From the IMG/VR virus record IMGVR_UViG_3300045988_098422: 64,000 nucleotides of DNA; one strand, written 5' to 3'. Each line of letters opens with the position of its first letter. The stretch's first letter is position 1. A program made the position numbers and the translations under genes. Shown piece after piece: positions 12,529 to 63,774 of this stretch. Below the pieces are notes generated by a model that saw only the letters and a list, made by a program, of their open reading frames with translations, was not told where the DNA came from and did not search any database. The DNA is from a virus.

Positions 12529-12559
12529 TTTGGAATGTCATTTTAAGTTGCTACATTTG
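12529..12559 (+). promoter_or_regulatory. Bacteroidota-type promoter (-33 TTTG / -7 TAcaTTTG)
   Basis: TTTG 12529-12532, 19-nt spacer, TACATTTG 12552-12559. Confidence 0.6.
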
Positions 12560-12579
12560 TGCAGTTAATTAACAACATC

Positions 12580-13665
12580 ATGGAAAATTTAACAGATATC
12601 TTTTTAAAATCCAGAGGGCACAAATATTTACGCAAAGTGCCGAACGGTAAAGGCGGTTATCGTTACATATACGAAGAACCGAGCCTGAAAACTACTTCGG
12701 TAGTCACACGTGAACAAAAGTACAAACAGAACGGGTGGGATTACAATACCCCATCAACGGTTGAGTACGCAAACGACCCACAGCGTAAACGGCTGCATCG
12801 TAAAACAGTTGCCGAGTACATTAAACGTTCAAGCCGACAGGGTGAAACGCCTCGTGCGGTGTTTACATTAGGCGGTTCGGGTGCGGGTAAAAGTACCGTT
12901 CTTAGAATGTTAGGTGAGCAAGACCCGTCCTTTAACAAAATTGTTACTGTTGATAGTGACGATATTAAGACAAAAACGTTTAAGGAAGATTTTGACGCTT
13001 ACAACAAACAAAAGAAGATGAGTGCCGCAGGGCGTTTGCATGAAGAGAGTAGCGAATTGGCTGATAAAATTGTTGACGGTATATTAAGCGTAAATAATGA
13101 CTACTTAAAGGATGGTACGATGAAAACGTATGCTTCTGCCGCAGCGGAAATTGAAAAAGCTAAGAAGAAAGGCTACCGGACTGATGTAGTAGGTGTGACA
13201 ATTTCGGTGGAAGAAGCCATTCGTCGGGCATATTCTAGAGCAGCTAAATCTGGTCGTCACGTTGAACCTGAAGTAATTGTAAAGGCTCATGTCGGTTCTA
13301 CGGAAACATTTTTGAAGTTAATTGAAACAGGTTTGGCAGATAGTTTGAAATTGTATGATAATTCGAGTAGTTCGCCAATACTAATCTATGATAGTGAGGA
13401 TGAAAATCCTATTAAGAACGTTAAGTTATTTGAGGAATTTAAAAATAAGAGGAATTACACTATGGCAAAGAAAGACAACAACATTGAAAAATCTTATGAT
13501 TTTGGTAAAAGTGAGTTTAACCGAAAAATGAAAAAGATATACCAAGAGCGAGAGGCTAAAGGTCTTCCAAATAGTGTGGATATACCAAACGACGCAGATG
13601 CGGACGACTTGGCACGCTTAAGAGCTTTTGGGGAATGGTTGAGCGATGGGCAACCCGTAGATTAA
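12580..13665 (+). CDS. zeta-toxin-like P-loop kinase domain protein
   Basis: Walker A LGGSGAGKSTV then VDSDDIK and HEESSEL. The N-terminus carries HKYLRKVPNGKGGYRYIYEEP. Start moved to ATG 12580 because the tracked GTG 12559 lies inside the -7 box. Confidence 0.55.
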   Translation: MENLTDIFLKSRGHKYLRKVPNGKGGYRYIYEEPSLKTTSVVTREQKYKQNGWDYNTPSTVEYANDPQRKRLHRKTVAEYIKRSSRQGETPRAVFTLGGSGAGKSTVLRMLGEQDPSFNKIVTVDSDDIKTKTFKEDFDAYNKQKKMSAAGRLHEESSELADKIVDGILSVNNDYLKDGTMKTYASAAAEIEKAKKKGYRTDVVGVTISVEEAIRRAYSRAAKSGRHVEPEVIVKAHVGSTETFLKLIETGLADSLKLYDNSSSSPILIYDSEDENPIKNVKLFEEFKNKRNYTMAKKDNNIEKSYDFGKSEFNRKMKKIYQEREAKGLPNSVDIPNDADADDLARLRAFGEWLSDGQPVD

Positions 13666-13689
13666 TCTAAAGATTTTTCGGCTAGTTCC

Positions 13690-13719
13690 TTGCATAATTC
13701 AAAATTATGACTACCTTTG
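13690..13719 (+). promoter_or_regulatory. Bacteroidota-type promoter in conserved cassette
   Basis: TTG 13690-13692, 19-nt spacer, TACCTTTG 13712-13719, then leader TAGTGTCAATCAATAAAAC. Confidence 0.7.
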
Positions 13720-13747
13720 TAGTGTCAATCAATAAAACAAGGTAGTC

Positions 13748-14050
13748 ATGAAAAGAAAAGTATTAACAGTCAGTGAAGTTAACCAAATGTTAATCCGCAA
13801 GGGATATAGAAGTTGTGAAACTATTCACATAGATATAGAAAATTCTTGGGAAGCGGATACTTTAGTATTTGAAGAATACAAAGATGGACACAGCGTTTGC
13901 GGGCTTTATAAGTTTCATCAATCTGAAGGCTGTCCAGTAGGTTGCGGCAATTTAACTAGAGTGGCAACCTACCGTAAATTAAAGGTTGCTGAAAAATACG
14001 AAATTATTGGTATTGTGGCACGTTTACCCAAACAAGAAAATAAAAATTGA
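13748..14050 (+). CDS. hypothetical protein
   Basis: Tracked ORF, 100 aa, directly downstream of promoter cassette. Confidence 0.55.
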   Translation: MKRKVLTVSEVNQMLIRKGYRSCETIHIDIENSWEADTLVFEEYKDGHSVCGLYKFHQSEGCPVGCGNLTRVATYRKLKVAEKYEIIGIVARLPKQENKN

Positions 14051-14057
14051 TTTAGTT

Positions 14058-22828: not shown

Positions 22829-23527
22829 ATGAAAGAAAAGACTTTAGGTGAGGTTTATTTGGTTACGTGCTTAGTAACAGGTAAACAATACGTTGGAATA
22901 ACTGCAAGAGGTTATTTAAATCGCTGGAAGAAGCATGTTGCAATGTCTAAAACAAAAGCAACAGGTCTTCACGAGGATATTGCTAAGTTTGGGGAAGATA
23001 ACTTTAAAATAGAAGTTATAGAGAGCAAATTATATGCAAATCGTGATAGAATGGCTAAATGGCTATTTAAAAGAGAGCGTTATTGGATTGCTTATTACGG
23101 TACTTATGAAAATGGATATAATTTGACCGCAGGTGGTGACGGTGTGGCAGGCGCACATAAATCAAAAGTTATTAGAGAGCTTATGGCTGAAATGATGAAG
23201 GATTTGTACGAAAACCACCCAGAAGAAAAGATTAAGCGATTGGAAAAGGCTCACGCCAAATTGCGCGACCCCGAATATCGCAAAATTAATTCTGAGAGGG
23301 TAAAAGCCCGTTTTGCTAATCCAGCGGAAAGACAAAGAACTAGCCGCCTAACGAAAGAAGCGATGGATAAATTACCAAAATACAAGAAAGATAAAATTAA
23401 GGAGAAACAGTTTAAGAAGGGATTAATACCTTGGAATAAAGGAAAATCTATGTCTGAAGAACAGAAAAACAAAATTTCTGAAAGCTGCAAAGGCAGAAAG
23501 GCATGGAACAAAGGTTTGAGGAATTGA
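22829..23527 (+). CDS. free-standing GIY-YIG homing endonuclease
   Basis: GEVYLVTCLVTGKQYVGIT, FGEDNF, YWIAYYGTYENGYNLTAGGDG; C-terminal basic NUMOD-like repeats (IPWNKGKSMSEEQKNKISE, GRKAWNKG). Confidence 0.8.
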   Translation: MKEKTLGEVYLVTCLVTGKQYVGITARGYLNRWKKHVAMSKTKATGLHEDIAKFGEDNFKIEVIESKLYANRDRMAKWLFKRERYWIAYYGTYENGYNLTAGGDGVAGAHKSKVIRELMAEMMKDLYENHPEEKIKRLEKAHAKLRDPEYRKINSERVKARFANPAERQRTSRLTKEAMDKLPKYKKDKIKEKQFKKGLIPWNKGKSMSEEQKNKISESCKGRKAWNKGLRN

Positions 23528-23568: not shown

Positions 23569-25179
23569 ATGAACGTACAGATTTTATTTAATGATGACGC
23601 CCGAAAGAAAATGTTTGAGGGGGTTGAAGAGTTGGCAAATGCAGTGTCGTCCACGCTCGGACCAAAAGGGCACTCGGTTATCCTGGATAAAGGCTATGGA
23701 ATACCCCACATCACCAAAGACGGTGTGACAGTTGCCCGTGCCTACGATACGGATGATACGATGAAGCGTATGGGTGCGACGCTTGTGAAGACCGTTGCTG
23801 CAAAAACATGTGATGAGGCGGGGGATGGCACTACGACAGCCACCATTTTAACCCGTGCATTAATGAAAGAGGGGATGGCAACATTAGCCCGTGTGTCTAA
23901 TCCACAGCGTTTTAAAGAGGGTATTGAAGCCGCTAAATGCGAAGCCGTGAAGTTTATGCAACAGATGAGCAAAGAAATTGGTGAAAACGATTTTGAGCGT
24001 ATCAGACAGATTGCGACAATAAGTGCCAACGGTGATGAGGAAATTGGGGCTATTATCACTGAAGCTATTGGCAAAGTAGGCAACGACGGAGTAATTACTG
24101 TTGAAGAAAGTAGCAAGAGCGAAACCACCGTAGAGGTGACGACAGGCTTCCAATGGGAAAAGGGGCTGTTGAACCCGTATTTTGTGACTGACCCCGAACG
24201 AATAGAATGTGTACTGAACAAACCATACATTTTGCTCTTTGGGCAAAACATAAACTACCCCGATGAAATATTGGGTGTATGTCGCAAGGTGTACGATAGT
24301 CACCGTTCTCTTTTGGTTGTTGCTCCTAATGCGTCTAACGACGTAGTGAATTTCTTGGTGCAGAATGTTAAACAAGCCAATGGACTGAAAGCCTGTTTCG
24401 TTAAAGCTCCGGGATATGGGCAGATGCAAAAGGATTTGATTATGGATTTGGGCGTTAAGATTGGCGCACACGTAATCGGAGAAGAGTATGGCAATCGTGT
24501 AGAAGAAATTGGCGTGGATTGGCTTGGTGAGTGTGAGCGTGTTGTGGTAAATAGCACTCGTACTATACTCACAGGGGGCGCAGGTTCGCCAGATGAGGTA
24601 AATACACAGGTAGCCGCAATTAAGCACCAATTAGACGACAGTACGAACGCTTTTGACATTGAAAAGTACCGTGAACGTATTGCACGCCTGACAGGTGGTG
24701 CGGCTGTTATTTATGTAGGCGCAGACAGTGACGTAGAAATGAAGGAACGGAAAGACCGTGTTGATGATGCTATTGCCGCAACTCGTGCAGCATTGGAAGA
24801 GGGGTACGTTCCGGGAGGCGGCACAATTCAGCTTCGTGCCTCTGAACTGCTTGTGCACCAACTTGCAGACTTGAATGAAAAACCAGCCGATTTCAGAGCT
24901 GGATGGTGTGTAGTGGCTGAGGCTTTGCGTTACCCGTTCCGTCAATTATGCGAAAATGCTAGTGCGAACGCAGTACGTATTCAAGTGGATATGGAACTTC
25001 AACCGTGGATGCACGGTTATGACCCTATAAAGGAAGAAGTTTGTGATATGTATGATGCAGGAATTATTGACCCGACAAAGGTGGCACGCTTGACGCTTGA
25101 GAACGCTACGTCGGTTGCAATTCAATTCCTCAATACTTCATGTGCAATGGCAGCTAGTAATGATGAGAAAGGGAGTTAA
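23569..25179 (+). CDS. groEL: GroEL-type chaperonin
   Basis: 536 aa; LGPKGHSVIL, ITKDGVTVA, AGDGTTTATIL, KAPGYG, GGGTIQL. Confidence 0.95.
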   Translation: MNVQILFNDDARKKMFEGVEELANAVSSTLGPKGHSVILDKGYGIPHITKDGVTVARAYDTDDTMKRMGATLVKTVAAKTCDEAGDGTTTATILTRALMKEGMATLARVSNPQRFKEGIEAAKCEAVKFMQQMSKEIGENDFERIRQIATISANGDEEIGAIITEAIGKVGNDGVITVEESSKSETTVEVTTGFQWEKGLLNPYFVTDPERIECVLNKPYILLFGQNINYPDEILGVCRKVYDSHRSLLVVAPNASNDVVNFLVQNVKQANGLKACFVKAPGYGQMQKDLIMDLGVKIGAHVIGEEYGNRVEEIGVDWLGECERVVVNSTRTILTGGAGSPDEVNTQVAAIKHQLDDSTNAFDIEKYRERIARLTGGAAVIYVGADSDVEMKERKDRVDDAIAATRAALEEGYVPGGGTIQLRASELLVHQLADLNEKPADFRAGWCVVAEALRYPFRQLCENASANAVRIQVDMELQPWMHGYDPIKEEVCDMYDAGIIDPTKVARLTLENATSVAIQFLNTSCAMAASNDEKGS

Positions 25180-27328: not shown

Positions 27329-27946
27329 ATGAAGAAAGATTTCCTTAATGTTTCTCCTGATACAGGGGGGGGTAGCGGAACGGTAACTGTCACCGCTGAC
27401 CCTAATTTAAACTTTGCTAGTCGTACGACAACTTTGAATTTTAATGCTGATGGAGAAGTATTAAAAGAGGTTGAAGCGTTACAGTTTGGGAATACCATTA
27501 TTCCGCAATTTTATTTAAGTCCAACCGTTTCAAGTAACAATGACTTATGGGCGTTGAAAATTACAACAACCTTAGAACTAGAAGAATTTGCGGCTGGAGC
27601 TTATAATTTCTTGGTGGATTGTACCGCTAATAAGAAGATAGCTACGGAAGGGACAGCTCCTAATGTAACTATTTGTATTTCGGTGATTAATAGTGTTATC
27701 ATACCGAGTGGTGGAAGTAACATAAATAACCGAGAATACGATATGTATTACAGTAAAGACAACGGTACTAAGACTAAGATGACAGTAAGTAAAGACCAAT
27801 ACAGTCAGTTTATTTCTTTCCGTTTTATGGAGAGGGCTACATTTGAAGAACTAACTGTTTCTAATTATCGCTTTTGGCTTCGCAATATAAACGATGCAAG
27901 TGAAATAGAACTTCCAGTTAGGTTTAGATTAGCTTATCATTATTAA
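27329..27946 (+). CDS. poly-G paralog family member A (G8, in frame, ON); BACON/Ig-like N-module (inference)
   Basis: MKKDFLNVSPDTGGGSGTVTVTADPNLNFASRTTTLNFNADGEVLKEVEALQ shared with 4 paralogs; 205 aa. Confidence 0.75.
   Translation: MKKDFLNVSPDTGGGSGTVTVTADPNLNFASRTTTLNFNADGEVLKEVEALQFGNTIIPQFYLSPTVSSNNDLWALKITTTLELEEFAAGAYNFLVDCTANKKIATEGTAPNVTICISVINSVIIPSGGSNINNREYDMYYSKDNGTKTKMTVSKDQYSQFISFRFMERATFEELTVSNYRFWLRNINDASEIELPVRFRLAYHY
27365..27372 (+). repeat. G8 homopolymer encoding Gly-Gly-Gly
   Basis: ACA GGG GGG GGT counted directly. Confidence 0.95.
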
Positions 27947-27978: not shown

Positions 27979-28458
27979 TTACCGCATTTCGTTATAACTA
28001 CGGTTCATCCACGCTTCTTTTTCCATGCTTTCAATCATGTCCTCAAGGAAATTTAAGGTTCCTTGGTCAGCGGGTGGCACTTGGTCATGAATTTCACGGA
28101 TGCGTCTAATTACCGTGTCCCAGTCGGCAGAAATAATTTTCCACATTTCCATGTCCGTCGGGAGTGGCTGAGACATTTCAAACTCCTGAATGTGGTTTGC
28201 CTGTAACATAGCTTCCATACTACCGAGCGGTCTGCCACCTAAAGCCCGCACACGTTCAGCAACGTCATCAACACGTTCAATTTCGGCTTCATAAAGTTTC
28301 AGCATAGCTTCGTGATAGCTGCCAAAAGAAGAACCAATAACGTTCCAATGGAACTGCCATGTTTTTAGCAACAGGGTAAAGTGGTCGGCTAATAAGCCGT
28401 TCAACAGGACAAGACTTTTAGCTATGTCCTCTGATGTTAATCCAATGTTTACTTTCAT
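27979..28458 (-). CDS. dps: Dps (DNA-binding ferritin-like protein)
   Basis: LLADHFTLLLKTWQFHWNVIGSSFGSYHEAMLKLYEAEIERVDDVAERVRALGG. Start set at MKVNIG (28458; alternative start 28467) because the tracked upstream Mets run into the promoter box. Confidence 0.85.
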   Translation of the reverse strand: MKVNIGLTSEDIAKSLVLLNGLLADHFTLLLKTWQFHWNVIGSSFGSYHEAMLKLYEAEIERVDDVAERVRALGGRPLGSMEAMLQANHIQEFEMSQPLPTDMEMWKIISADWDTVIRRIREIHDQVPPADQGTLNFLEDMIESMEKEAWMNRSYNEMR

Positions 28459-28493
28459 AATGTACATTTTAAAAAGTTGATGTATATACGCCA

Positions 28494-28501
28494 CAAAGGT
28501 A
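28494..28501 (-). promoter_or_regulatory. -7 box TACCTTTG for dps (minus strand)
   Basis: Minus-strand GACTACCTTTGT, same 12-mer as the + strand promoters at 13710 and 28570. Confidence 0.55.
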
Positions 28502-28549
28502 GTCAAAAGAAAATTATTAGAAAAATCTTAGAAAAAGTCCGGTGAAGTC

Positions 28550-28579
28550 TTGTTATTTCAAAAATTATGACTACCTTTG
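28550..28579 (+). promoter_or_regulatory. Bacteroidota-type promoter in conserved cassette
   Basis: TTG 28550-52, 19-nt spacer, TACCTTTG 28572-79; about 30 nt nearly identical to 13700-13733. Confidence 0.7.
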
Positions 28580-28618
28580 TAGTGTCAATAAACAATAACT
28601 CATTAAAAATTCAAAATT

Positions 28619-30587: not shown

Positions 30588-30604
30588 AACAAATCTATGA
30601 ATAA

Positions 30605-30631
30605 GCCGGAAAATTTTCCGGCTTTTCTTTT
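30605..30631 (+). terminator. terminator hairpin of cassette
   Basis: GCCGGAAAATTTTCCGGC perfect palindrome then TTTTCTTTT; identical hairpin at 55340. Confidence 0.75.
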
Positions 30632-30658
30632 GCAGTTTAAATTAAAGTATTATATTTG
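30629..30658 (+). promoter_or_regulatory. Bacteroidota-type promoter in conserved cassette
   Basis: TTTG 30629-32, 18-nt spacer, TATATTTG 30651-58, leader CGGTGTCAATAAAAAC. Confidence 0.65.
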
Positions 30659-30683
30659 CGGTGTCAATAAAAACTTAATAGTT

Positions 30684-35174: not shown

Positions 35175-35757
35175 TCGACGGTGGATACAGGTAGTCTACG
35201 AAAATTGAAATTGTAAATTCGAGTGGGATGTCAGTAGGGGTGATTTGGACGTGATAGAGCCGGATCACTCCTATTGATGTCTTAAATAAAAAGGCAGGGT
35301 GGATACATCGTAATCGTCTGACAGTTAAAATTGTAGGTACTCAAAAGAAATAAGGGGTGGGGCACATAATCAGTGATGAATAATAGGGAGTAACACAGGT
35401 ATAAGACATATAGTAGGTAGTATAGAGGGTGGATAGGTACAGGGGTGTAGCGGGGAGTGAGGTGGTTCGGGGGTGGTGGGTTGGGTGGTTATATAGTGGT
35501 TACAGGAGTTTTGAGGCGAAATTCCCGCCCGCATCAATATCCCCGAAGACCGAGGGCTGTCGTGTGGAGCAGATGCGAAAACAGGCAAGATTTAGAGCTC
35601 CTAATGTCTTATATACAATTTGACGCTCATGCTCCGGACACTTACATCTATTTGTGAGTACTGACACATCCATATTTAAGAAAGTGCCGCTCCCGTTCCG
35701 GGCGAGTGTAACAAAACGATAGATAAGATATAAAAGTCTGGTTTAAGAAAAATCAAA
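35175..35757. other. about 580-nt non-coding, purine/G-rich region with degenerate direct repeats (candidate origin/iterons or ncRNA)
   Basis: No credible ORF. GGTGGATAC occurs at 35179 and 35297 and GGTGGATAG at 35427. AAATTGTA lies 28-30 nt into units 1 and 2. A G-run cluster spans 35441-35487. Confidence 0.5.
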
Positions 35758-35786
35758 ATAATTCTAAGAAAAACTCCGGGCAACTC

Positions 35787-35816
35787 TTGTTTATTCAAGA
35801 ATTATATGTACCTTTG
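35787..35816 (+). promoter_or_regulatory. Bacteroidota-type promoter in conserved cassette
   Basis: TTG 35787-89, 19-nt spacer, TACCTTTG 35809-16; upstream TTCTAAGAAAAACTCCGGGCAACTC cassette arm. Confidence 0.7.
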
Positions 35817-35881
35817 CAGTGTTGATAAAGGTTATCAACGGTGTGGGTGGCACATTCCACTCGGTTTTAATACTTGGTATT

Positions 35882-36163
35882 ATGAAGGCAAGTTCAGTTT
35901 TAGTTTCCAGAGTTAAAGAAATCGTTGCTATTAACGGTGAAGTTAAACTTAATAATCCAGTAACGATTAGTTACCAAAGATACATCGGGTATAATTACAC
36001 TACTAAACAACATGAATACGTGCCGACAACGGTGCAAATAAGAGAAGTGTACCGTTACGGTAAGAGAGGCGAGGTTAGACTTAGTGAAGGCTTTAACTAC
36101 TGGAGACCTACTGAATTAACAGCCAAAGAATGTGAGGCAATATTGGCACAGCTCCCCAACTAG
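35882..36163 (+). CDS. hypothetical protein
   Basis: Start moved to ATG 35882 (MKASSVLV); tracked GTG 35819 lies just after the -7 box. Confidence 0.5.
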   Translation: MKASSVLVSRVKEIVAINGEVKLNNPVTISYQRYIGYNYTTKQHEYVPTTVQIREVYRYGKRGEVRLSEGFNYWRPTELTAKECEAILAQLPN

Positions 36164-36173
36164 GGAGCTTTTA
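36150..36173 (+). terminator. terminator hairpin overlapping stop codon
   Basis: AGCTCCC-CAACTA-GGGAGCT then TTTTA. Confidence 0.6.
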
Positions 36174-36181
36174 TACCTTTG
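36174..36181 (+). promoter_or_regulatory. -7 box TACCTTTG (no clear -33)
   Basis: TAnnTTTG followed by leader TACCACCAATCAATAAAAAC. Confidence 0.45.
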
Positions 36182-36209
36182 TACCACCAATCAATAAAAA
36201 CTCATAATC

Positions 36210-36581
36210 ATGGAAAAGTACATTTTAAAGAAAACCAAAGTAAGAGGCACTAACTTATACACAGTTGTCAACGAACAAGGAGTGGTTATATCCACGACGA
36301 AGGACAAAAGGGATTTTGTGGCTTGCACGATTAAGGGGCACTACTTTTTCGGTCGTAAGGACTTAATAGGTAAAGGGGAACATGGGAAGCAACTGAAGTA
36401 CTGGAAAGCGGTGCTCGCCAATCCAGAACAAGCCTACGAAAGTTTTATACGTGGCTATTACAAGAGTGCCAGAGAAAAGATACGTAAAGAGTACTATTAT
36501 GAAAAATGGCTGGAAGAAAGCATAAAACGAGCTCCAGAACTTGTGGAAGTGTTTGGCACTATTGCCTATTTAGAGGAATAA
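36210..36581 (+). CDS. hypothetical protein
   Basis: Tracked ORF, 123 aa. Confidence 0.55.
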   Translation: MEKYILKKTKVRGTNLYTVVNEQGVVISTTKDKRDFVACTIKGHYFFGRKDLIGKGEHGKQLKYWKAVLANPEQAYESFIRGYYKSAREKIRKEYYYEKWLEESIKRAPELVEVFGTIAYLEE

Positions 36582-36604
36582 GCGGGGAAACCCGCTTTTA
36601 TTTT
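36581..36604 (+). terminator. rho-independent terminator
   Basis: AGCGGG-GAAA-CCCGCT then TTTATTTT. Confidence 0.75.
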
Positions 36605-36636
36605 GAATAAATTCTAAGAATTTCCCCGAGCACTCC

Positions 36637-36666
36637 TTGGATATTCAAATAAAAAGACTACCTTTG
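36637..36666 (+). promoter_or_regulatory. Bacteroidota-type promoter in conserved cassette
   Basis: TTG 36637-39, 19-nt spacer, TACCTTTG 36659-66; upstream TTCTAAGAATTTCCCCGAGCACTCC. Confidence 0.7.
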
Positions 36667-36697
36667 CAACATCAAAATCAATAAAACGTTTAAGACT

Positions 36698-37455: not shown

Positions 37456-37478
37456 TTTTGAGTTTTATTGATGAATTT

Positions 37479-37517
37479 ATAGGGGCAGGTCTTGGATATT
37501 CCAGATTTTGCCCCTAT
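37479..37517 (+). terminator. long-loop hairpin enclosing the next promoter's -33 element
   Basis: ATAGGGGCA-21 nt-TGCCCCTAT; loop contains CTTGGATATTC. Confidence 0.45.
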
Positions 37518-37522
37518 ATTTG
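37492..37522 (+). promoter_or_regulatory. Bacteroidota-type promoter in conserved cassette
   Basis: TTG 37492-94, 20-nt spacer, TATATTTG 37515-22. Confidence 0.65.
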
Positions 37523-38908: not shown

Positions 38909-38920
38909 TCCGGTAAAGTC

Positions 38921-38950
38921 TTGGAAATTCAATTATAAACCGTATATTTG
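38921..38950 (+). promoter_or_regulatory. Bacteroidota-type promoter in conserved cassette
   Basis: TTG 38921-23, 19-nt spacer, TATATTTG 38943-50, leader CAGGGTCAATCAGTAATAAC. Confidence 0.7.
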
Positions 38951-38987
38951 CAGGGTCAATCAGTAATAACAATTAAATCTTAGAATT

Positions 38988-39380
38988 ATGGTAACGAAAT
39001 TTATGACGACAAAGGAATTTTTACAGTGGTGCACCAATTACGTAAAAGAGGACATTCAGGCTCTTATAGACAAGGGTGATTTTAAAGCGGTGGTAGAAAA
39101 GTATTACAGCTTTCACTTTCCATTGGTGACAGTATTTGGGGCACACGTTGCAAACGGTTACTTTTACGACAGCCCGACAGAGCACACTCCTGACCACATT
39201 ATCGCACCTATTTGCGCACGTCTGGAACAGGAAATTAATCTGGTTATTGAGGAAGTTTACGAGGATTTTAATGACGAATACTACGAGGATTTTGAAGCAC
39301 CCGAAAATGAAAGCGACGAGTTGTTTGACGACCGCTTTGAGGGTATGGATGTTTGTTGGTTACAGGATATAGACGATTAA
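38988..39380 (+). CDS. hypothetical acidic protein
   Basis: Tracked ORF, 130 aa, very acidic C-terminal half. Confidence 0.55.
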   Translation: MVTKFMTTKEFLQWCTNYVKEDIQALIDKGDFKAVVEKYYSFHFPLVTVFGAHVANGYFYDSPTEHTPDHIIAPICARLEQEINLVIEEVYEDFNDEYYEDFEAPENESDELFDDRFEGMDVCWLQDIDD

Positions 39381-40308: not shown

Positions 40309-40370
40309 CCCTCTACACGGGACTTGCAGGCATAAAATCAAAATATTTTGAAGAATTTACGGATAAACTC

Positions 40371-40401
40371 TTGCACAATTCAATTGAAGTAACTACATTT
40401 G
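40371..40401 (+). promoter_or_regulatory. Bacteroidota-type promoter in conserved cassette
   Basis: TTG 40371-73, 20-nt spacer, TACATTTG 40394-401, leader CAATGTCAAATTAATTCAATAAAC. Confidence 0.7.
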
Positions 40402-40444
40402 CAATGTCAAATTAATTCAATAAACAATTTAAAATTCAATAGTT

Positions 40445-42889: not shown

Positions 42890-42913
42890 GTCAATTGTTA
42901 AATCTTAGGAATT

Positions 42914-42933
42914 TCCCGGAAATATTTCCGGGA
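42914..42933 (+). terminator. terminator hairpin of cassette
   Basis: TCCCGGAAATATTTCCGGGA perfect palindrome then TTTCTTG. Confidence 0.7.
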
Positions 42934-42937
42934 TTTC

Positions 42938-42968
42938 TTGTTTATATAAATCACTCCCACTATATTTG
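42938..42968 (+). promoter_or_regulatory. Bacteroidota-type promoter in conserved cassette
   Basis: TTG 42938-40, 20-nt spacer, TATATTTG 42961-68, leader CGCTGTCAATCAATAAAAAC. Confidence 0.7.
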
Positions 42969-42997
42969 CGCTGTCAATCAATAAAAACAAAGAAATT

Positions 42998-45728: not shown

Positions 45729-45762
45729 AGCCGTTGCCCGTGAGGGTTGCGGCTTTTATTTT
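45729..45762 (+). terminator. rho-independent terminator
   Basis: AGCCGTTGCCC-GTGA-GGGTTGCGGCT (GNRA loop, 2 wobbles and 1 mismatch) then TTTTATTTT. Confidence 0.6.
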
Positions 45763-45794
45763 GAATTTATGTAAAGAATTTCCCGAGTGTTTCC

Positions 45795-45824
45795 TTGGAT
45801 ATTCCATAAGAACCCGTACATTTG
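45795..45824 (+). promoter_or_regulatory. Bacteroidota-type promoter in conserved cassette
   Basis: TTG 45795-97, 19-nt spacer, TACATTTG 45817-24; upstream AAGAATTTCCCGAGTGTTTCC arm. Confidence 0.7.
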
Positions 45825-45864
45825 CGTAGTCAATTAATTTGGGTGATACTATAAAATAGAATAT

Positions 45865-49039: not shown

Positions 49040-49661
49040 ATGAAGAAAGATTTTATTACAGTTCTTCCCGAATCGGGGGGGGGGTGACGCACAGGTTCAA
49101 GTAACCGCTGACGTCAATCCAAGTTTCGCAAGTCGTGAAACTACTATCAATTTTAACGCCAACGGGCAAGTTCTTAAAAGTATTCGGGCTGTTCAGGACG
49201 GTATGCCGTTTGTTTGTCAATTAGGTTTTGATGCACCTGCTAATTTAAGTCAAGGGTTCTTTATTCAATATTTTGGGCTTACTCGTACAGGTGGAACTAA
49301 TGGCTGTCCGCTAATAAATGGAATTATAGCCAGAATTATAAAGTTAGACAACGACTTTAAATTAATTCCTATGTTTGGTTGTTTGCGTTCATTTTGGAAA
49401 GAAACCGATGATAAAGAATTAATTGCCGAGCTTAGATGGACGGACAATACAGGGTATGAAGTTGGGAAAACGTACCTAAATTTTACTTTTGACAACGAAG
49501 ACGGTGAGGAGTGGGCTAATTATACCGCTGAATTTAGCGGGTCGGATTTAGTTGTGCCGAGTGATGCTTACAGATTAAGAGTGAGTGTTGGCTTTGGACG
49601 TGGTGATGTTGGTATCGAAGATAATAATTACATTTGGCAGTATTATTTATCTTTCCAATAA
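49040..49661 (+). CDS. poly-G paralog family member B (G10, frame-shifted OFF as written)
   Basis: ATG 49040 gives MKKDFITVLPESGGG then TGA. With G9 it reads SGGGDAQVQVTADVNPSFASRETTINFNANGQVLKSIRAVQDGMPFVCQ..., in frame with tracked ORF 49203..49661. Confidence 0.7.
49075..49084 (+). repeat. G10 homopolymer
   Basis: aatcGGGGGG GGGGtgac counted directly. Confidence 0.95.
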
Positions 49662-49671: not shown

Positions 49672-49691
49672 TCCCGGAAGAAATTCCGGGA
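49672..49691 (+). terminator. terminator hairpin of cassette
   Basis: TCCCGGAA-GAAA-TTCCGGGA then TTTTCTTTG. Confidence 0.7.
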
Positions 49692-49696
49692 TTTTC

Positions 49697-49727
49697 TTTG
49701 ATATGTCAATTAGTCTGCCTACATTTG
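49697..49727 (+). promoter_or_regulatory. Bacteroidota-type promoter in conserved cassette
   Basis: TTTG 49697-700, 19-nt spacer, TACATTTG 49720-27, leader CAGTGTCAATCAATAG. Confidence 0.7.
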
Positions 49728-49768
49728 CAGTGTCAATCAATAGTTATTCACTTTAAAACTCAAATGTT

Positions 49769-53708: not shown

Positions 53709-54596
53709 ATGTACAAAGACTTTGTAAATGTAACCCCTGAAAGCGGTGGCGCAGGCACTACTCCGATAGCTGTTGCCGCTGATGAAAACGAAGGAGCTGC
53801 ACGCAGCACTTCACTCAATATTGCGGGTGGCGGTGTGACACGAACTGTCTCTATCACTCAAAAGAAAATGCTTGTGGAAAACCAAATTGAAGTTAAATAT
53901 TGGTTAGACGCAGCAACTAGCGGGACAGGCAAGTCAATTTATTTGGAAGCCTATGCAAACAATGATGTAGCAAGCAACCTGAAAATTAACTTTAGCATTG
54001 ACCAACAGGGACCGACAGGCGAATGGGAAACCAACACTCCAGTAGAAATACTGATAAATACTGGAGATAACGCTTCCACAACTTATGAAATTCCATATTA
54101 TGATTACGGATGGCGTTTTCATGAAGAAGTGGCTACTATTACCCCTTCTCAAGATGAAGATTTTATTTATGATTTTGCAGGATTCATTGAAGAATTTAGG
54201 GCTCCAGAAATTGGTATCTGGAAAATAAACACGCTTACAGGAGAACCAAATGGAGGAGAAGCAACAAACCCATCAGCCGTTTATCAAGTTTCTTCAAACG
54301 CTGACTTCAAAAAAGTTTTGACTTTTGCTTCTTTGGGTGGAGTTACTTTTTATGATGAAAGCGGTTTAGCAAGTATGACACTTACTTGGTTACAAATCCA
54401 ATATTCAGATGAAATTGGGCAAAAGCCATACGCTATTTCTGTTCGGGGTGGCTTTACAGGAGTATCAGAATTAAACACTATGCTTTGGAGTGGTAAATTC
54501 CAAAATGGAGTTATTAATGCAACTTATCAAGCCCAATTTAAAATAGATGGCGTTATTCGCAATTTTAAATGGCGAATTCAAGGAGCACACATTTAA
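53709..54596 (+). CDS. poly-G paralog family member E (no tract; GG encoded GGT GGC; constitutively in frame)
   Basis: MYKDFVNVTPESGGAGTTPIAVAADENEGAARSTSLNIAGGG; 295 aa, longer divergent C-domain. Confidence 0.75.
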   Translation: MYKDFVNVTPESGGAGTTPIAVAADENEGAARSTSLNIAGGGVTRTVSITQKKMLVENQIEVKYWLDAATSGTGKSIYLEAYANNDVASNLKINFSIDQQGPTGEWETNTPVEILINTGDNASTTYEIPYYDYGWRFHEEVATITPSQDEDFIYDFAGFIEEFRAPEIGIWKINTLTGEPNGGEATNPSAVYQVSSNADFKKVLTFASLGGVTFYDESGLASMTLTWLQIQYSDEIGQKPYAISVRGGFTGVSELNTMLWSGKFQNGVINATYQAQFKIDGVIRNFKWRIQGAHI

Positions 54597-54652: not shown

Positions 54653-55304
54653 ATGAAGAAAGATTTTGTAACAATTACCCCAGATACGGGGGGGGGGCTC
54701 GGCTACTCCACAAGTAACCGCTGAACCCAATGTGACGGCACAGTCACGCTCAACAACTCTCAATTTTGATGCCAACGGAAAGCAGCTTAAATCCGTTCAA
54801 GTCAATCAACTCGGTATTCCATGGTTCATAAATGTGTGTACCGCCATTCAGGGCGAAATAACTGAAGCCAATACAAACGTCGGACATTCTTTAAAAGAAG
54901 TGGATTTTTCGCCTAGTGGCGATGGTGGTAGTATGCCAAATATTCCATTCTTTCAGTATGATTTTGAAATAAATAATTTCAATTACACCAGTAAGACGGT
55001 TTGGTATTTAGCTCTGGAAGCTAATATATTAGGTACTTTGATTGATACCAATACGGAATATTTAATTCTGGAATTTGATTTAGGCAAAGGAGATGGGTGG
55101 GAACGAATGGAATTTATGTGGGAAAATACCTTTGAGGGCTATCAATATTGGCGCAATACGACACCCAACGTTTACCCCAATGAATATCCGACAGTTAAAA
55201 CTGTCCAAATGCGAGTTGGAATTGGTGATAATACTGACCCAGAGCCTATTCATACTTATCTTGCTCAATTTACAGTAAATATCGTATTAAGCCCCCGACC
55301 CTAG
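54653..55304 (+). CDS. poly-G paralog family member C (G10, frame-shifted OFF as written)
   Basis: ATG 54653 gives MKKDFVTITPDTGGGLGYSTSNR then stop. With G9 it reads TGGGSATPQVTAEPNVTAQSRSTTLNFDANGKQLK, in frame with tracked ORF 54732..55304. Confidence 0.7.
54688..54697 (+). repeat. G10 homopolymer
   Basis: atacGGG GGGGGGGctc counted directly. Confidence 0.95.
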
Positions 55305-55339
55305 CGTAGCCAACATGATTTGATTACGCATTTGGATAA

Positions 55340-55357
55340 GCCGGAAAATTTTCCGGC
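55340..55357 (+). terminator. terminator hairpin of cassette
   Basis: GCCGGAAAATTTTCCGGC (identical to 30605) then TTTTTCTTTG. Confidence 0.75.
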
Positions 55358-55363
55358 TTTTTC

Positions 55364-55394
55364 TTTGCCAATCCAATTTATCTGCCTATCTTTG
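55364..55394 (+). promoter_or_regulatory. Bacteroidota-type promoter in conserved cassette
   Basis: TTTG 55364-67, 19-nt spacer, TATCTTTG 55387-94, leader GGGTGTCAAATTAAAA. Confidence 0.7.
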
Positions 55395-55410
55395 GGGTGT
55401 CAAATTAAAA

Positions 55411-55701
55411 ATGGATTTAGTTATGGAAGTACAAGTAGTTAAAACAACAGTAAAAGCCGCAGCTGGAGTTAAAGAAACGAATTATGCTGCAATTATAAAC
55501 AAGTATTGTAGACAAATCGGTTTCATTACTGATGATGGTATTTATTTAGAACTTTATGACCAAAACCTAAGAGGTTTTGGTATAGGTAGTTTTCAGAAAA
55601 TAGATACAGGCGATGCCAAACCGTTTAGATGGTTATGCAAAATAGTAGAAGATAATTGGGACGCTATGTACGACCGCTATACTTTGGCGATAAAAGGATA
55701 A
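55411..55701 (+). CDS. hypothetical protein
   Basis: Tracked ORF, 96 aa. Confidence 0.55.
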   Translation: MDLVMEVQVVKTTVKAAAGVKETNYAAIINKYCRQIGFITDDGIYLELYDQNLRGFGIGSFQKIDTGDAKPFRWLCKIVEDNWDAMYDRYTLAIKG

Positions 55702-55874
55702 GGAAAGATATTTAGATATACGTATAATAGACGTTGACATAACATTATTTTATTATTTAAGCGAATACTTTTTGTATTTTACCCGAAGCGTCGGGGTTAA
55801 CAAGATGAAACCCGTGAGGGCGGATATTGTCGTAGTAACACGAGTTTTAAAGATTATGTTTATTGATTGGCATG

Positions 55875-55896
55875 GGGCGGAGAATATTCTCCGCCC
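55875..55896 (+). terminator. terminator hairpin
   Basis: GGGCGGAGAATATTCTCCGCCC perfect 22-nt palindrome then TTGCTTTTT. Confidence 0.7.
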
Positions 55897-55927
55897 TTGC
55901 TTTTTCAAAGAAATTGATTTACCTTTG
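55897..55927 (+). promoter_or_regulatory. Bacteroidota-type promoter
   Basis: TTG 55897-99, 20-nt spacer, TACCTTTG 55920-27. Confidence 0.65.
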
Positions 55928-55944
55928 TATTTTAAACAACCAAA

Positions 55945-56971: not shown

Positions 56972-57594
56972 ATGAAGAAAGATTTTATTACTGTAACCCC
57001 TGAATCGGGGGGGGGGCAGGCACAACAGTAAACGTTGTTGCTGACCCTAATTTTGGCTCTATGCCTAGAAAAACAACCTTAAATTTTGCGGCAAATGGGC
57101 AACCGCTTAACAAAGGAATAGAAGTTTCTCAAATAGGAAGTTTCTTTCAATTATTTGCTTTTCCCAACTTTACTTTAGCAACAACCTCACCCAATCAACA
57201 GTACATGTTGAAAATGTTTTTGGATAGTTTGGACTATGATGAGGTTGAATTTCAAGGACAAACTTTTAATGTTCCTTATTATGGGGTACAAACTACCAAA
57301 GCCACGGGAGTAACTCTGTATGATGCCTTCTTAGACTTCCATTTATTATTTTCCACAGAAGCAATTAATAGCTTACAAATCACTGAATTTGTGGCTGATG
57401 TTGAATCAAATAATGGAGGGGTAAGCACTGTGTCTTTAACGCCCGCCCAAGTAGAAACAAATTTGGGTGTGTCAGAATTTACACTAAGCACTAAATCACT
57501 TAGTGGATTACAAACTTTGCATCAGGTCACTTTTTATGCCATTATAAACAATGCGAAAGTGCAAATTTGCAGAGTAGGAAATGCCGTTAGATAA
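56972..57594 (+). CDS. poly-G paralog family member D (G10, frame-shifted OFF as written)
   Basis: ATG 56972 gives MKKDFITVTPESGGGQAQQ then stop. With G11 (or G8) it reads SGG(G)AGTTVNVVADPNFGSMPRKTTLNFAANGQPLNK, in frame with tracked ORF 57061..57594. Confidence 0.7.
57007..57016 (+). repeat. G10 homopolymer
   Basis: aatcGGGG GGGGGGcagg counted directly. Confidence 0.95.
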
Positions 57595-61332: not shown

Positions 61333-61575
61333 ATGGAAGATTTATTAATGAAATCAGTGAATAAACATTACTTTCCTGAAAAGGAACGTAAAGAGCTAGC
61401 CAAAGAGGGCGAAGCCATGCCAGATGGTTCTTTTCCTATTCGTAATGAACAAGACTTGAAGGACGCCATACGTAGTGTCGGTAGAGCTAAAGACCCCGCA
61501 GCCGCTAGACGGTGGATAAAGAAGCGTGCCAAAGAAATGGGTAAAGAGGCAACGTTACCGGAAGATTGGAAATAA
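61333..61575 (+). CDS. conserved small phage protein
   Basis: Tracked ORF, 80 aa; AMPDGSFPIRNEQDLKDAIRSVGRA motif seen in many phage proteins (recollection). Confidence 0.55.
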   Translation: MEDLLMKSVNKHYFPEKERKELAKEGEAMPDGSFPIRNEQDLKDAIRSVGRAKDPAAARRWIKKRAKEMGKEATLPEDWK

Positions 61576-61599
61576 TTTAAGAATTTCGGTGGCACTATC

Positions 61600-61630
61600 T
61601 GGGATATTCGTTTTTAAATGTTTATCTTTG
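61600..61630 (+). promoter_or_regulatory. variant cassette promoter (TGG / TATCTTTG)
   Basis: TGG 61600-02, 20-nt spacer, TATCTTTG 61623-30; upstream TTAAGAATTTCGGTGGCACTATC arm. Confidence 0.5.
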
Positions 61631-61656
61631 TAGTGCCACTTTAATTTTGATTAGAT

Positions 61657-63483
61657 ATGGACGATATAGAAAAATCACGCCACGGTCGGTATGAAGACAA
61701 CGCTAAGAACAGGCGGCTTCATCGTGTAGGTCAAGAATATGGCAGTAAGAAGCAGGAAGACGAAACTGTTGACCCTAGCAAATTAACTCTTGACCAATTA
61801 CATAAGGAAATCAATGAGTTGGGGCACATATTAGGCGGTAGGATTAAGGATGGTAGACGTACAGAAGATGTAGAAAAGCGTATTTCTGATTTGCTTAAAT
61901 ATGCTCCCGATAAGGTATTGGAAAGCACCTTAGAAGCTCTTAGGACAAATGTCAAGCCAAACCCGACCGCAAAAATTGCCGCCAAACTGACGGAAATGGA
62001 AATTAACCGTCGCAAAACAGAGGGTTCTGCAAAACAGACTGAAAAGAAAGAGGAAACTCCTAAGGAAGAGCCAAAAGCTCAATCTGAAGAGCCTGAAACA
62101 TATACCCGTGTGAAGTTTGATGATGTGCCTCAAAGCGGAAAGGTAAATCTTAAGAAATACCTTTCTAATAAAATTAGGGCGGAGGTTGACAAGGCTTGGA
62201 AAGACAAGGCTAAAATCGGTGACAAAACTTTGCAGGACATGGAAAAGGGTATGGTCGCAGAGTTTAACAAAAACTTTGACAATCTAAGCAAGTCAAAACG
62301 AGCCGAAGCCCTGTACAGTATTATGACGGTTAAGGCAGAAATAGCCCGTCGGGGTAGAGGGGCTAAAAACGAGGAAAAACAAGGTGAGCAGCTTGCATCT
62401 AAACAGGAAACTCCAACGGAAAAGCCTAAAGTAGACTATAAGAAACCTGAATCCTTTAATGAGCTTTACACCAGAGTTCGAAACACATGGTCGGATATTA
62501 TGGAAACAAAGCCCAAGGAAGTAGATTTTACTAAGCCTAAAGAAGTGGCTGAAATGGCTTCTGCATTTTTTCCTGGAACAACTATATCTAAAGTAGACGG
62601 TGAAGAAGAATATATGGTTCAATATCCTGGGGATGCAAGTAGGTTTATGCGTATTGATAAATATACGAGTTCTCCTAAAGCCTTGAATGATAAAATAAGG
62701 ATGTTTTTATCTATGGATATGGACATGCGCACTAGACAGAATTTTTCAAATGATGAAAAAGAAAAATTTGATAGGATATTTGCGCTAGTTGCGGAAAGTG
62801 TGGCTGATAGGGCACTTGTTAAAGATATGAACGTTGCCCGCACAAAAGCATTTGAAGAACAGGTTGATGAAAACAATAGGAATATTTCAAGGAATGTTAG
62901 GGTAAGAAAGGGTAAACCGATGAGCTTTGAGGAAGCTAATCAAGGTCGTGGAAATCCTAAATATCGTTCTGATGAACTTTTTCGTATAAACTGTCAAACA
63001 TGTGTGGTAATTCATGAATTGCGATTAAGAGGATTTGATTTGGGTGCGAAGCCAAAAACAAGTTCTGCACAATTTGCAATGGCAAAAGATTCCTCCTATG
63101 CTTGGATAGACCCGTTGACAGGGCAGCAACCCGAAGCTGTGAGAATAACTTGTGCCCCAGAGAATAAAGTAATTAAGGTCAGAAAAAGCCAGAAATCAAA
63201 GTCGGATTTACGTAAAAATATTTTAGAAGCTACAAAAGAGGTAGGACGTTATAATTTTTCTTATGGATGGGAAAACGGTAAGGATAGTTCTGGACATATC
63301 ATAACCGCTGAAAGGCACGCTGATGGGAATTTGACATTTTACGACCCTCAAAATGGGAAGAGCGTGCCTATGGTAGAATTATTGGATGAGGTTAGTCCTA
63401 AATATTTGTGCAGGATAATTCGAGTAGATAATTTGCTTATTAAACCGGATATTGTTAAAGATTACGCAATGCAATATGAGTAA
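61657..63483 (+). CDS. large multidomain protein; N-terminal NRRLHRVG motif, C-terminal predicted papain-fold Cys-His-Asp domain
   Basis: GRYEDNAKNRRLHRVGQEYG at the N-terminus; C-terminus RINCQTCVVIHELRLRG ... SSGHIITAERHADGNLTFYDPQNG. Confidence 0.55.
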   Translation: MDDIEKSRHGRYEDNAKNRRLHRVGQEYGSKKQEDETVDPSKLTLDQLHKEINELGHILGGRIKDGRRTEDVEKRISDLLKYAPDKVLESTLEALRTNVKPNPTAKIAAKLTEMEINRRKTEGSAKQTEKKEETPKEEPKAQSEEPETYTRVKFDDVPQSGKVNLKKYLSNKIRAEVDKAWKDKAKIGDKTLQDMEKGMVAEFNKNFDNLSKSKRAEALYSIMTVKAEIARRGRGAKNEEKQGEQLASKQETPTEKPKVDYKKPESFNELYTRVRNTWSDIMETKPKEVDFTKPKEVAEMASAFFPGTTISKVDGEEEYMVQYPGDASRFMRIDKYTSSPKALNDKIRMFLSMDMDMRTRQNFSNDEKEKFDRIFALVAESVADRALVKDMNVARTKAFEEQVDENNRNISRNVRVRKGKPMSFEEANQGRGNPKYRSDELFRINCQTCVVIHELRLRGFDLGAKPKTSSAQFAMAKDSSYAWIDPLTGQQPEAVRITCAPENKVIKVRKSQKSKSDLRKNILEATKEVGRYNFSYGWENGKDSSGHIITAERHADGNLTFYDPQNGKSVPMVELLDEVSPKYLCRIIRVDNLLIKPDIVKDYAMQYE

Positions 63484-63484
63484 A

Positions 63485-63739
63485 ATGACAGAAGAGGTAA
63501 CTCGGGCGATAGCCACGAAGTTCCTAACAAGACCAGAAGATTTTGAATTGACTAAAGAAGAAAACTACAAAAATTATGTAGTCTATTTTGCGGCTTATAA
63601 AGAGGCGAACGGAAATGCAAATTATGGACTTCCTATTTTTGTGTTGATTGATGAATTGGGCAAAGCCCGATTTGCCGAACCTGACGAAACTCGTAAATTA
63701 ATGAGGCGTTGGGATGATAAGGGTGAGGAAGAGGACTAG
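63485..63739 (+). CDS. hypothetical protein
   Basis: Start moved to ATG 63485, 1 nt after the previous stop. Confidence 0.5.
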   Translation: MTEEVTRAIATKFLTRPEDFELTKEENYKNYVVYFAAYKEANGNANYGLPIFVLIDELGKARFAEPDETRKLMRRWDDKGEEED

Positions 63740-63743
63740 CGGC

Positions 63744-63774
63744 TTTCCAATTTACTCTTTTTATTATACATTTG
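63744..63774 (+). promoter_or_regulatory. variant promoter (TTTC / TACATTTG)
   Basis: TACATTTG 63767-74; -33 position reads TTTC. Confidence 0.4.

Follow-up and report, generated by a model that had tools for sequence, protein, structure and literature searches.

In T4-like phages, promoter-early stem-loop elements (PeSLs) have been defined by a consensus host promoter, an AT-rich element upstream of it and a stem-loop whose position varies (PMC2839356). PeSLs are enriched upstream of ORFans in a hyperplastic genome region, where insertions and deletions leave chimeric elements, and five subclasses were distinguished in phages phi1 and RB49 by the placement of the stem-loop (PMC2839356). Promoter strength, terminator activity and the formation of mini-circles have all been demonstrated experimentally in T4-like phages (Arbiol et al., 2010, PMC2839356; Comeau et al., 2014, PMC4122927). 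Here we describe a repeated cassette from an uncultured phage that can be compared with these elements. The cassette lies in a stretch of 64,000 nt (the window, to which all positions refer) of IMG/VR record IMGVR_UViG_3300045988_098422; it is about 70–100 bp long and occurs in 16 copies in one orientation. The probable reading, in our view, is that the copies are promoters for the host polymerase, many of them equipped with terminators, and that they double as short-homology crossover points.

We found that the pattern TTG-N19-TAnnTTTG has 13 matches in the window as compared to 1.86 expected; 11 of the 13 are on the plus strand, and none of 100 shuffled sequences reached 13. With a two-block position weight matrix anchored on the TAnnTTTG (-7) box, there were 15–16 sites on the plus strand, none on the minus strand and none in shuffled sequence, so the repeated promoter-type motif claimed by a first-pass annotation of this DNA is real. 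This matrix test is circular for the window itself; when the same model was applied to independent relatives, sites were again present on the gene strand only. All 14 positions listed in the first-pass annotation correspond to genuine sites, which we anchor at the first T of TAnnTTTG (13712, 28572, 30651, 35809, 36659, 37515, 38943, 40394, 42961, 45817, 49720, 55387, 55920 and 61623). Two further sites were found beyond that list, one at 12552 and a partial one at 36174, where terminator, -7 box and leader are present and the -33 element is missing. The annotation had also run the set out to position 63774; the sequence there (63767–63774, TACATTTG) is a -7 box on its own, with -33, spacer box and start box all missing, and does not belong to the set. 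This box precedes the first gene of the structural module by about 35 nt and may represent a different promoter class for late genes.

Using the promoter numbering of a Flavobacterium johnsoniae study (PMC6847099), the upstream element AAGAATTTCCGG is found at about -57 to -46, cTTG at -34 to -32, an ATTCAA box at -28 to -23 and cTAHHTTTG at -12 to -5. A start box, nAnTGTCAAT(c)AATAA, spans the predicted start; it is among the most conserved blocks and had gone unmentioned in the first-pass annotation. The spacing from TTG to TAHHTTTG, given there as 19–20 nt, is 18–20 nt wherever TTG is present (14/16 sites; 36174 is without TTG and 61623 has CTGG). The variable pair of the -7 box is CC, CA, TA or TC, with no G at -10/-9 in any of the 16 sites, and 15 of the 16 have a purine 5 nt beyond the -7 G, which in 12 of them is G. 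Every site is on the gene strand, and the first ATG opening an open reading frame (ORF) of at least 40 codons is 12–61 nt downstream, which is the predicted leader.

Primary-sigma promoters of Bacteroidota are written TTTG/TAnnTTTG, with the -33 element (TTG or TTTG) about 19 nt ahead of the -7 element. In F. johnsoniae, the -7 element reads T-12 A-11 .. T-8 T-7 T-6 G-5 and essentially never has G at -10/-9; start sites lie 4–5 nt beyond its G, AT-rich motifs have their centres at -18 and -28, and leaders average 33 nt (PMC6847099). The position of the -7 box was also confirmed in F. psychrophilum (PMC9723704). The cassettes resemble these sigma-A promoters in the absence of G at -10/-9, in the distance to the predicted start, in the AT-rich -28 motif (with which the ATTCAA box coincides) and in leaders of typical length, in a class that has no Shine-Dalgarno requirement. 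They differ in that the phage TTG is nearly invariant whereas the -33 of Flavobacterium host promoters is weak (PMC6847099), and in that about 30 more positions are conserved in the phage cassettes. A scan for the sigma-70 consensus in the cassette region stayed at background level (57 vs 50.6 and 55 vs 44.1 expected). All 16 sites follow the published flavobacterial rules, as the first-pass annotation had proposed in matching them to the Bacteroidota primary-sigma promoter, and judged from their sequence the cassettes are very likely promoters.

There was no megablast match between GenBank phages and 46 kb of the window, and hence no close DNA relative, and relatives were therefore located through their proteins by polymerase comparison. 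The window polymerase is 39% identical to those of Tenacibaculum phage Larrie and the Cellulophaga phiST group (genus Cbastvirus), 36% identical to that of a Chryseobacterium phage and 30% identical to those of Bacteroides phages; the best cultured relatives all infect Bacteroidota. Many uncultured relatives are present in IMG/VR, with polymerase identities of 45–99% and contigs of up to about 110 kb. The phage also encodes BACON-domain proteins with scores above the Pfam threshold. When we searched 185,579 species genomes for exact matches to the extended pattern, we found 70 loci, about 45 of them (~64%) in Bacteroidota, with approximately one match per bacterial genome and no matched locus that is a phage relative. 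These data suggest that the pattern is a Bacteroidota promoter signature, whereas its stereotyped multi-copy use (16 copies in the phage, about one in a bacterial genome) belongs to the phage. The cultured relatives, the BACON-domain proteins and the genome matches agree with the host phylum named in the first-pass annotation, and the pattern across bacterial genomes supports a phylum, not a genus.

A phage RNA polymerase was also considered as the reader of the motif. Larrie (L123), the nearest cultured relative, encodes a T7-type single-subunit RNA polymerase at 3715–6066 on the minus strand (Pfam RNA_pol, 156 bits), and no homologue of it is present in the window or elsewhere in 1.8 Mb of family loci, which leave about 24 kb of the genome type outside. 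This is consistent with the host polymerase reading the sites, and it indicates that the transcription strategy differs within the wider phage group.

We next consider the stem-loops, whose position relative to the promoter varies. A hairpin is fused upstream of -33, with its T-tail entering -33, at 30651, 42961, 49720 and 55387; it overlaps -33 at 55920 and replaces -33 and spacer at 36174. At 37515, -33 and spacer are inside the hairpin, with the -7 box in the role of T-rich tail, and at 61623 the hairpin encloses the whole core. At 35809 and 13712 it lies at the start site, and at 36659 and 45817 there is a separate terminator about 50 nt upstream. To score stems we summed pairs and GC pairs; a score of at least 12 is reached by 10/16 cassettes as compared to 1/53 ordinary gene boundaries and 16/300 random windows. 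The form of an intrinsic terminator (a GC-rich stem directly followed by a T-run) is present at 30603, 36580, 42914, 45738, 49672, 55338 and 55874, arguably also at 36150 and 37478, and not at the other cassettes. The four palindromes quoted in the first-pass annotation are exact. One palindrome, CCGGAAAATTTTCCGG, is the upstream element GAAAATTTTCCGG with a complementary CCGG prefixed, so that the same bases make up the terminator's 3' arm and the promoter's upstream element.

Each cassette would then act as a strong promoter for host RNA polymerase carrying the Bacteroidota primary sigma factor, its parts being a UP-like upstream element (AAGAATTTCCGG), the -33 TTG, the ATTCAA box and the -7 TAHHTTTG. 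The most likely start of transcription would be the G conserved in TGTCAAT, 5 nt beyond the -7 box, and the transcript would carry a short (12–61 nt) A-rich leader to the first ORF of the unit. In about two thirds of the copies, the GC-rich stem-loop in or beside the promoter would probably stop or attenuate read-through from the preceding unit, and such terminators would insulate the transcription units. Where the stem-loop lies upstream, its T-tail would form the -33 region and its 3' arm the upstream element. Units of a cassette plus one or more ORFs could be gained, lost and swapped between relatives at the shared blocks, which are candidate crossover points because some 70–100 bp are repeated 16 times in one orientation.

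Nearly all long ORFs in the window are on the plus strand. The first 28 kb (1–28 kb) hold a replication and nucleotide-metabolism module that, by Pfam and PHROG scans, includes a DnaE-like polymerase, SbcCD, an NAD-ligase, helicases, ribonucleotide reductase and GroEL, and the region from 28.5 to 57 kb holds about 65 small ORFs. Thirteen of the 16 cassettes are in the ORFan region at 28–56 kb. Those in the replication module mark operon heads (12552 and 13712), and relatives have others before and after the polymerase gene. In 12 relatives, there is no site in the 10 kb of structural genes (portal to tail fibre) after the gene for a 608-aa protein. When we tested ten ORFs that stand first after a cassette, nine had no Pfam family and the tenth had a sub-threshold DUF2786 match only. 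The cassettes were first described as bracketing single small ORFs, and this is so in 4 of the 15 intervals (after 12552, 35809, 36174 and 55387), the others holding 2 to about 13 ORFs. Since cassettes drive replication operons and, densely, the small-ORFan region, we lean towards early or early/middle promoters on the basis of gene content.

Conservation in related genomes, on which the first-pass annotation had staked its proposal, extends to uncultured relatives with polymerase identities down to about 53–68%, where the same model found cassettes on the gene strand only in loci it had not been trained on. From 53 non-redundant cassettes, the upstream element was recovered as AAAA.TTTC.GG...A.TC.TTG at positions outside the search model. 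Non-orthologous cassettes are 43–63% identical at non-consensus positions (sigma-A letters excluded), as compared to 28% in shuffled sequence. When we looked for concerted evolution as a lineage-specific 'house style', similarity was 0.465 within and 0.428 between lineages, a small excess that is clear in two lineages and is not in the window's own. A different stereotyped cassette, TTGCRCAATACAAATACACTWAC-TAYATTTG-TAA, is found in relative L054 (53% polymerase identity) at 2499, 5663, 14480 and 21527 and also in L060, one copy in this lineage following a terminator hairpin; each lineage seems to keep a cassette style of its own. The strict extended pattern is present in 35 contigs across IMG/VR with one match each, which is uninformative on its spread because these contigs were selected by the pattern itself.

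To compare gene order, we mapped 21 loci from approximately ten close relatives (84–98% nucleotide identity) onto the window, and we found that the 28–57 kb region is highly mosaic. Sixteen of 67 breakpoint clusters are in cassette windows, which cover 5% of the DNA (p = 1e-7, naive null). Because most other clusters sit at ordinary gene boundaries, this null is unfair, and we used a gene-boundary test instead. Adjacency is broken in at least one relative at 10/13 cassette boundaries as compared to 24/53 others (one-sided Fisher p 0.04), and the mean broken fraction is 0.43 at cassette boundaries and 0.25 at the others. In the gene-order map, variation recurs in the slot immediately behind a cassette (28572, 37515, 42961 and 45817), and the units at 35.9, 36.2 and 36.7 occur in most combinations among relatives.

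Some junctions are inside the cassettes themselves. L071 has the flank of cassette 35809 running into the body of cassette 36659, with the junction inside AATTCTAAGAA, an 11-nt block that both share; two single-ORF units are gone and one cassette is left. L069 (position 692) has one cassette in which a core like that of 35809 (89% identity) meets a leader like that of 36174 (94%), with the crossover at the shared TACCTTTG, and in L068 (position 4970) a core matching that of 28572 (93%, compared to 69% to 35809) is followed by the leader of 35809 (100%). L073 lacks one unit, and its junction is in a shared terminator tail. Among 61 distinct cassettes of relatives, 47 match one window cassette in both halves, 11 have one such half beside novel sequence, and 3 were flagged as chimeric, 2 of them robustly. 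Contig 105516 (L068) was considered as a clean cassette-to-cassette deletion from 36.2 to 43.0 kb and rejected, since at its junction a block has been replaced, a different small ORF is present and the 42961 cassette is missing. The first-pass expectation that ORFs would be gained and lost at cassette boundaries is thus borne out by the chimeric cassettes and by cassette-plus-ORF units that are present or absent; the excess over ordinary boundaries is modest, and such changes are not exclusive to cassettes.

Several observations weigh against promoter cassettes that double as crossover points. The hairpin, which had been taken as the constant first element of a stereotyped layout, changes position and is absent from three cassettes (12552, 38943 and 40394). 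The modest enrichment of breakpoints comes from events that are not phylogenetically independent, and many small-ORF insertions and deletions are at plain gene boundaries (x4, x13-15, x21 and x45/46). Several cassette-adjacent insertions are flanked by a cassette on one side only, and recombination between two cassettes of the same genome could not produce these. The stereotyped cassette is absent from the 45–50% relatives and from the cultured Cbastviruses phiST and Larrie, which have generic TTG-N18-20-TAHHTTTG promoters, in some with a terminator hairpin fused to -33. Finally, the upstream element, ATTCAA as a specific sequence and the GTCAAT start box are all outside the published sigma-A consensus, so something beyond the core polymerase contacts may be recognised. 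A simpler explanation would be that the sites are ordinary strong host-type promoters, with the mosaicism arising from generic recombination at gene boundaries plus selection, and apparent breakpoints appearing where alignments stop at a conserved promoter. This would account for the breaks at 24 of 53 boundaries that have no cassette, for just 16 of the 67 breakpoint clusters being within cassettes, for the many variable ORFs in slots without cassettes, and for the events at 42961, 45817 and 37515 that have no second cassette at the other edge. However, cassette boundaries are broken more often than the others, the chimeras at L068:4970 and L069:692 join the core and leader of non-allelic cassettes, and the L071 junction is inside a block common to two cassettes; the chimeras and this junction call for crossovers within cassettes and not merely adjacent to them. 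We therefore regard generic recombination around passive promoters as possible and rather doubtful, and a recombination role for the cassettes beyond that of any gene boundary as just favoured.

The additional conserved blocks may serve a strong promoter as contacts for the polymerase, or another factor may bind them. If AAGAATTTCCGG and GTCAAT bound a phage or host regulator, the whole set could be switched as a temporal class, comparable to the activator-dependent middle promoters of T4. The blocks carry information in the 53 non-redundant cassettes even though they are outside the search model, they persist across lineages, and in some lineages the upstream element and the spacer box are imperfect inverted repeats of each other on either side of -33; moreover, with about one extended match per bacterial genome, the extended form is no common host promoter type. 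Such factor-dependent promoters or operators are nonetheless unlikely: -33 and -7 are near consensus at optimal spacing, so that in principle no activator is required, the window has shown no candidate regulator, its only divergent gene encoding a Dps/ferritin-like protein, and the position from -57 to -46 fits a UP-like contact with the polymerase alpha subunit, as known from E. coli promoters, equally well. We give as little credence to a further extension of our reading, in which the cassettes would be a dedicated gene-exchange platform of Bacteroidota phages, with circles of a cassette and an ORFan moving between co-infecting phages and a phage factor reading AAGAATTTCCGG/GTCAAT to coordinate expression or exchange. 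The palindromic arms in several copies, and single-ORF units that are present or absent between copies, could also suggest a small mobile element or a site-specific recombination site between genes (MITE-like or integron attC-like). We consider this extremely unlikely, since the repeats have one orientation and a fixed place 12–61 nt before a start codon, have no terminal inverted repeats or target duplications, lack palindromes in half of the copies and have them differently placed in the others, and show a different crossover point in each event (upstream element, -7 box, terminator tail or leader). No integrase or transposase turned up in Pfam and PHROG scans of about 40 window ORFs, a set from which most of the small ORFs were absent.

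The individual cassettes, all on the plus strand, vary around this layout. Cassette 1 (12495–12571, anchor 12552) has a -33 TTG, a 19-nt spacer, TACATTTG and a weak start box with no hairpin, and heads the one-gene unit 12580–13665. This gene encodes a zeta-toxin-like kinase (Pfam Zeta_toxin, 92.7 bits) that stands between two cassettes within the replication module. Cassette 2 (13655–13749, anchor 13712) has the upstream element TCTAAAGATTTTTCGG, CTTG, the ATTCAA box, TACCTTTG and GTGTCAATCAATAA, with an 11-bp inverted repeat (13707–13717/13739–13749) across the start site, and heads the operon of ligase, helicase, ribonucleotide reductase and GroEL. Cassette 3 (28515–28591, anchor 28572) has the full layout without a hairpin of its own, and its core is 94% identical to that of cassette 2 over 35 nt. 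Diverging from cassette 3 is one of the few probable minus-strand genes (27979–28506), preceded by a minus-strand -7-only box, TACCTTTG (28494–28501), that is not a full cassette and that forms a 12-bp inverted repeat with the -7 region of cassette 3. The product of this gene, a 'DNA binding protein' by PHROG, was tried as the regulator of the set and rejected, as it is the Dps/ferritin-like protein.

In cassette 4 (30603–30670, anchor 30651), the T-tail of a terminator-like palindrome, AAGCCGGAAAATTTTCCGGCTT (30603–30624), reaches into the -33 TTG; the true start of the gene behind it is probably the ATG at 30684. Cassette 5 (35752–35839, anchor 35809) has the upstream element TTCTAAGAAAAACTCCGG, a full core and a start-site stem-loop (35821–35828/35832–35839), and heads the single ORF 35882–36163. 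In the partial cassette 6 (36150–36209, anchor 36174), the hairpin AGCTCCC..GGGAGCT (36150–36169) takes the place of -33 and spacer and is followed by TACCTTTG and the leader CAATCAATAAAAAC; it heads the single ORF 36210–36581, and L069 has its complete chimeric cassette at the same place. Cassette 7 (36580–36678, anchor 36659) begins with a separate terminator, GCGGGGAAACCCGC+TTTTATTTTG (36580–36597), followed by TTCTAAGAATTTCCCCGAG, CTTGGATATTCAA and TACCTTTG. In cassette 8 (37478–37534, anchor 37515), a 10-bp stem (37478–37487/37509–37518) encloses -33 and spacer, and the -7 box is the T-rich tail. Cassettes 9 (38886–38962, anchor 38943) and 10 (40337–40413, anchor 40394) both have the full layout without a hairpin; cassette 9 is present together with ORF 38988–39380 in some relatives only, and the boundary at cassette 10 is kept in 10/10 relatives.

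Cassette 11 (42903–42990, anchor 42961) combines an upstream element, the palindrome TCCCGGAAATATTTCCGGGA (42914–42933), the core and the leader CAATCAATAAAAAC, and the slot that follows differs among relatives (43.0, x20 43.0 or x26 43.0). Cassette 12 (45729–45836, anchor 45817) has a separate terminator (about 45729–45755), TGTAAAGAATTTCCCGAG and the core, and in most relatives an extra ORF (x6) is found directly after the start box. In cassette 13 (49672–49739, anchor 49720), the palindrome TCCCGGAAGAAATTCCGGGA (49672–49691) is fused to -33 ahead of a full core and start box. Cassette 14 (55338–55406, anchor 55387) has the palindrome AAGCCGGAAAATTTTCCGGCTT (55338–55359), is 92% identical to cassette 4 over 36 nt and heads the single ORF 55411–55701; a deletion in contig 105516 ends inside it. 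In cassette 15 (55874–55939, anchor 55920), a GC-rich hairpin, GGGGCGGAGAATATTCTCCGCCC (55874–55897), overlaps the -33 TTG, and the start box is weak. In cassette 16 (61566–61642, anchor 61623), which has the upstream element TTTAAGAATTTCGG, the -33 is degenerate (CTGG) and the core is enclosed by a 9-bp inverted repeat (61589–61597/61631–61639); this cassette heads the gene for the 608-aa protein that precedes the structural module.

The surroundings of the window can be read from contig 083254, a circular permutation of the same genome type, which must therefore be about 108 kb. In this contig, the right end of the window runs on into portal, protease, major head and tail-fibre genes, and genes for terminase, DnaB, primase, dUTPase and thymidylate synthase precede the polymerase gene. 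Scans of the window with Rfam and for tRNAs found nothing. The 608-aa protein (61657–63483), encoded behind the last cassette and directly upstream of the portal gene, has a C-terminal papain-fold glutamine-deamidase toxin domain and may be an injected or virion-associated effector. A full-length GroEL-type chaperonin is encoded at 23569–25179 (PHROG 5725, E = 2e-142) with no recognisable GroES adjoining. There are two GIY-YIG/NUMOD3 homing-endonuclease genes; one (4362–5018) is directly 3' of the polymerase gene, and the other (22829–23527), between ribonucleotide reductase and GroEL, is found in the window only, relatives joining 22.75 kb straight to 23.54 kb.

Four of the BACON-domain genes (27329–27946, 49040–49661, 54653–55304 and 56972–57594) encode a protein start MKKDF..TP..GGG by means of a G8–G10 homopolymer near the 5' end, whereas a fifth paralog (53709–54596) has no tract and encodes the same glycines with mixed codons. 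The 64-kb window has no other G run of at least 7 and no C run that long. Among near-identical relatives, the tract varies from G6 to G10 and the reading frame toggles; for the paralog at 54653, G6 and G9 give 215–216 aa and G7, G8 and G10 give 20–23 aa. In the window, three of the four tract-bearing genes are out of frame, and in a 74%-identity relative (L085) the tract is at the same codon. Poly-G tracts in Campylobacter phages behave as phase-variable, and the tracts here look like slipped-strand phase variation of phage surface or binding proteins. Alternatively, the differences in tract length could be errors of homopolymer assembly.

In the searchable literature, we found no report of PeSL-like cassettes for Bacteroidota phages. 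If our reading is correct, the PeSL idea would be extended from T4-like phages of Proteobacteria and one archaeal virus to an unrelated lineage with Bacteroidota promoter grammar, suggesting convergent evolution of the same genome-plasticity device. With their many variants in relatives, the 16 copies would amount to a set of natural mutants of apparently strong promoters for Bacteroidota, combined with compact terminators, on which genetic tools could draw in a phylum where parts from E. coli fail. The motif would also allow the host phylum of uncultured phages of this clade to be assigned from sequence, delimit their probable early region and flag ORFan candidates for host-takeover or anti-defence functions.

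T4 and SPO1 have sets of strong early promoters, each with a cluster of small host-takeover genes. The cassettes are like these sets in having several near-consensus host promoters with extended conservation and many small genes of unknown function, and unlike them in sigma type; the early timing of the window phage is itself predicted. The haloarchaeal myovirus HGTV-1 has, as summarised in a review (PMC3950731), a conserved TATA-like box and an inverted repeat before most ORFs of one genome arm, which its authors explicitly likened to PeSLs. That motif and the cassettes are both repeated, promoter-like and associated with an inverted repeat, and differ in that the promoter and host of HGTV-1 are archaeal.

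The closest likeness remains with the PeSLs of T4-like phages, as the first-pass annotation had suggested; each sequence-level PeSL feature that we tested is present in the window, and the single-ORF unit of the original picture is the exception. Both have a host primary-sigma promoter with a conserved upstream element and a variably placed stem-loop, here in at least five placements that match the PeSL subclasses. Both are conserved over about 70–100 bp, occur in tens of copies in one orientation, and are dense before ORFans in a hyperplastic region with few copies in the replication module. In both, close relatives differ by cassette-bounded units and chimeric cassettes are left behind. In contrast to the sigma-70 -35/-10 of PeSLs, the cassettes have the Bacteroidota -33/-7 (TTG / TAHHTTTG), and they belong to a phage unrelated to T4 that has a DnaE-like replicative polymerase and Cbastvirus as the nearest cultured genus. 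They have an extra conserved start box (GTCAAT), and their specific upstream element, AAGAATTTCCGG, doubles as the 3' arm of a terminator. Whereas activities and mini-circles have been shown for PeSLs, the window cassettes are putative promoters and terminators, and their excess of breakpoints is modest. Because the sigma-70 promoter and the T4-like phage setting do not apply here, the comparison makes the window cassettes a Bacteroidota analogue of the T4 PeSL and not a homologue or a member by descent.

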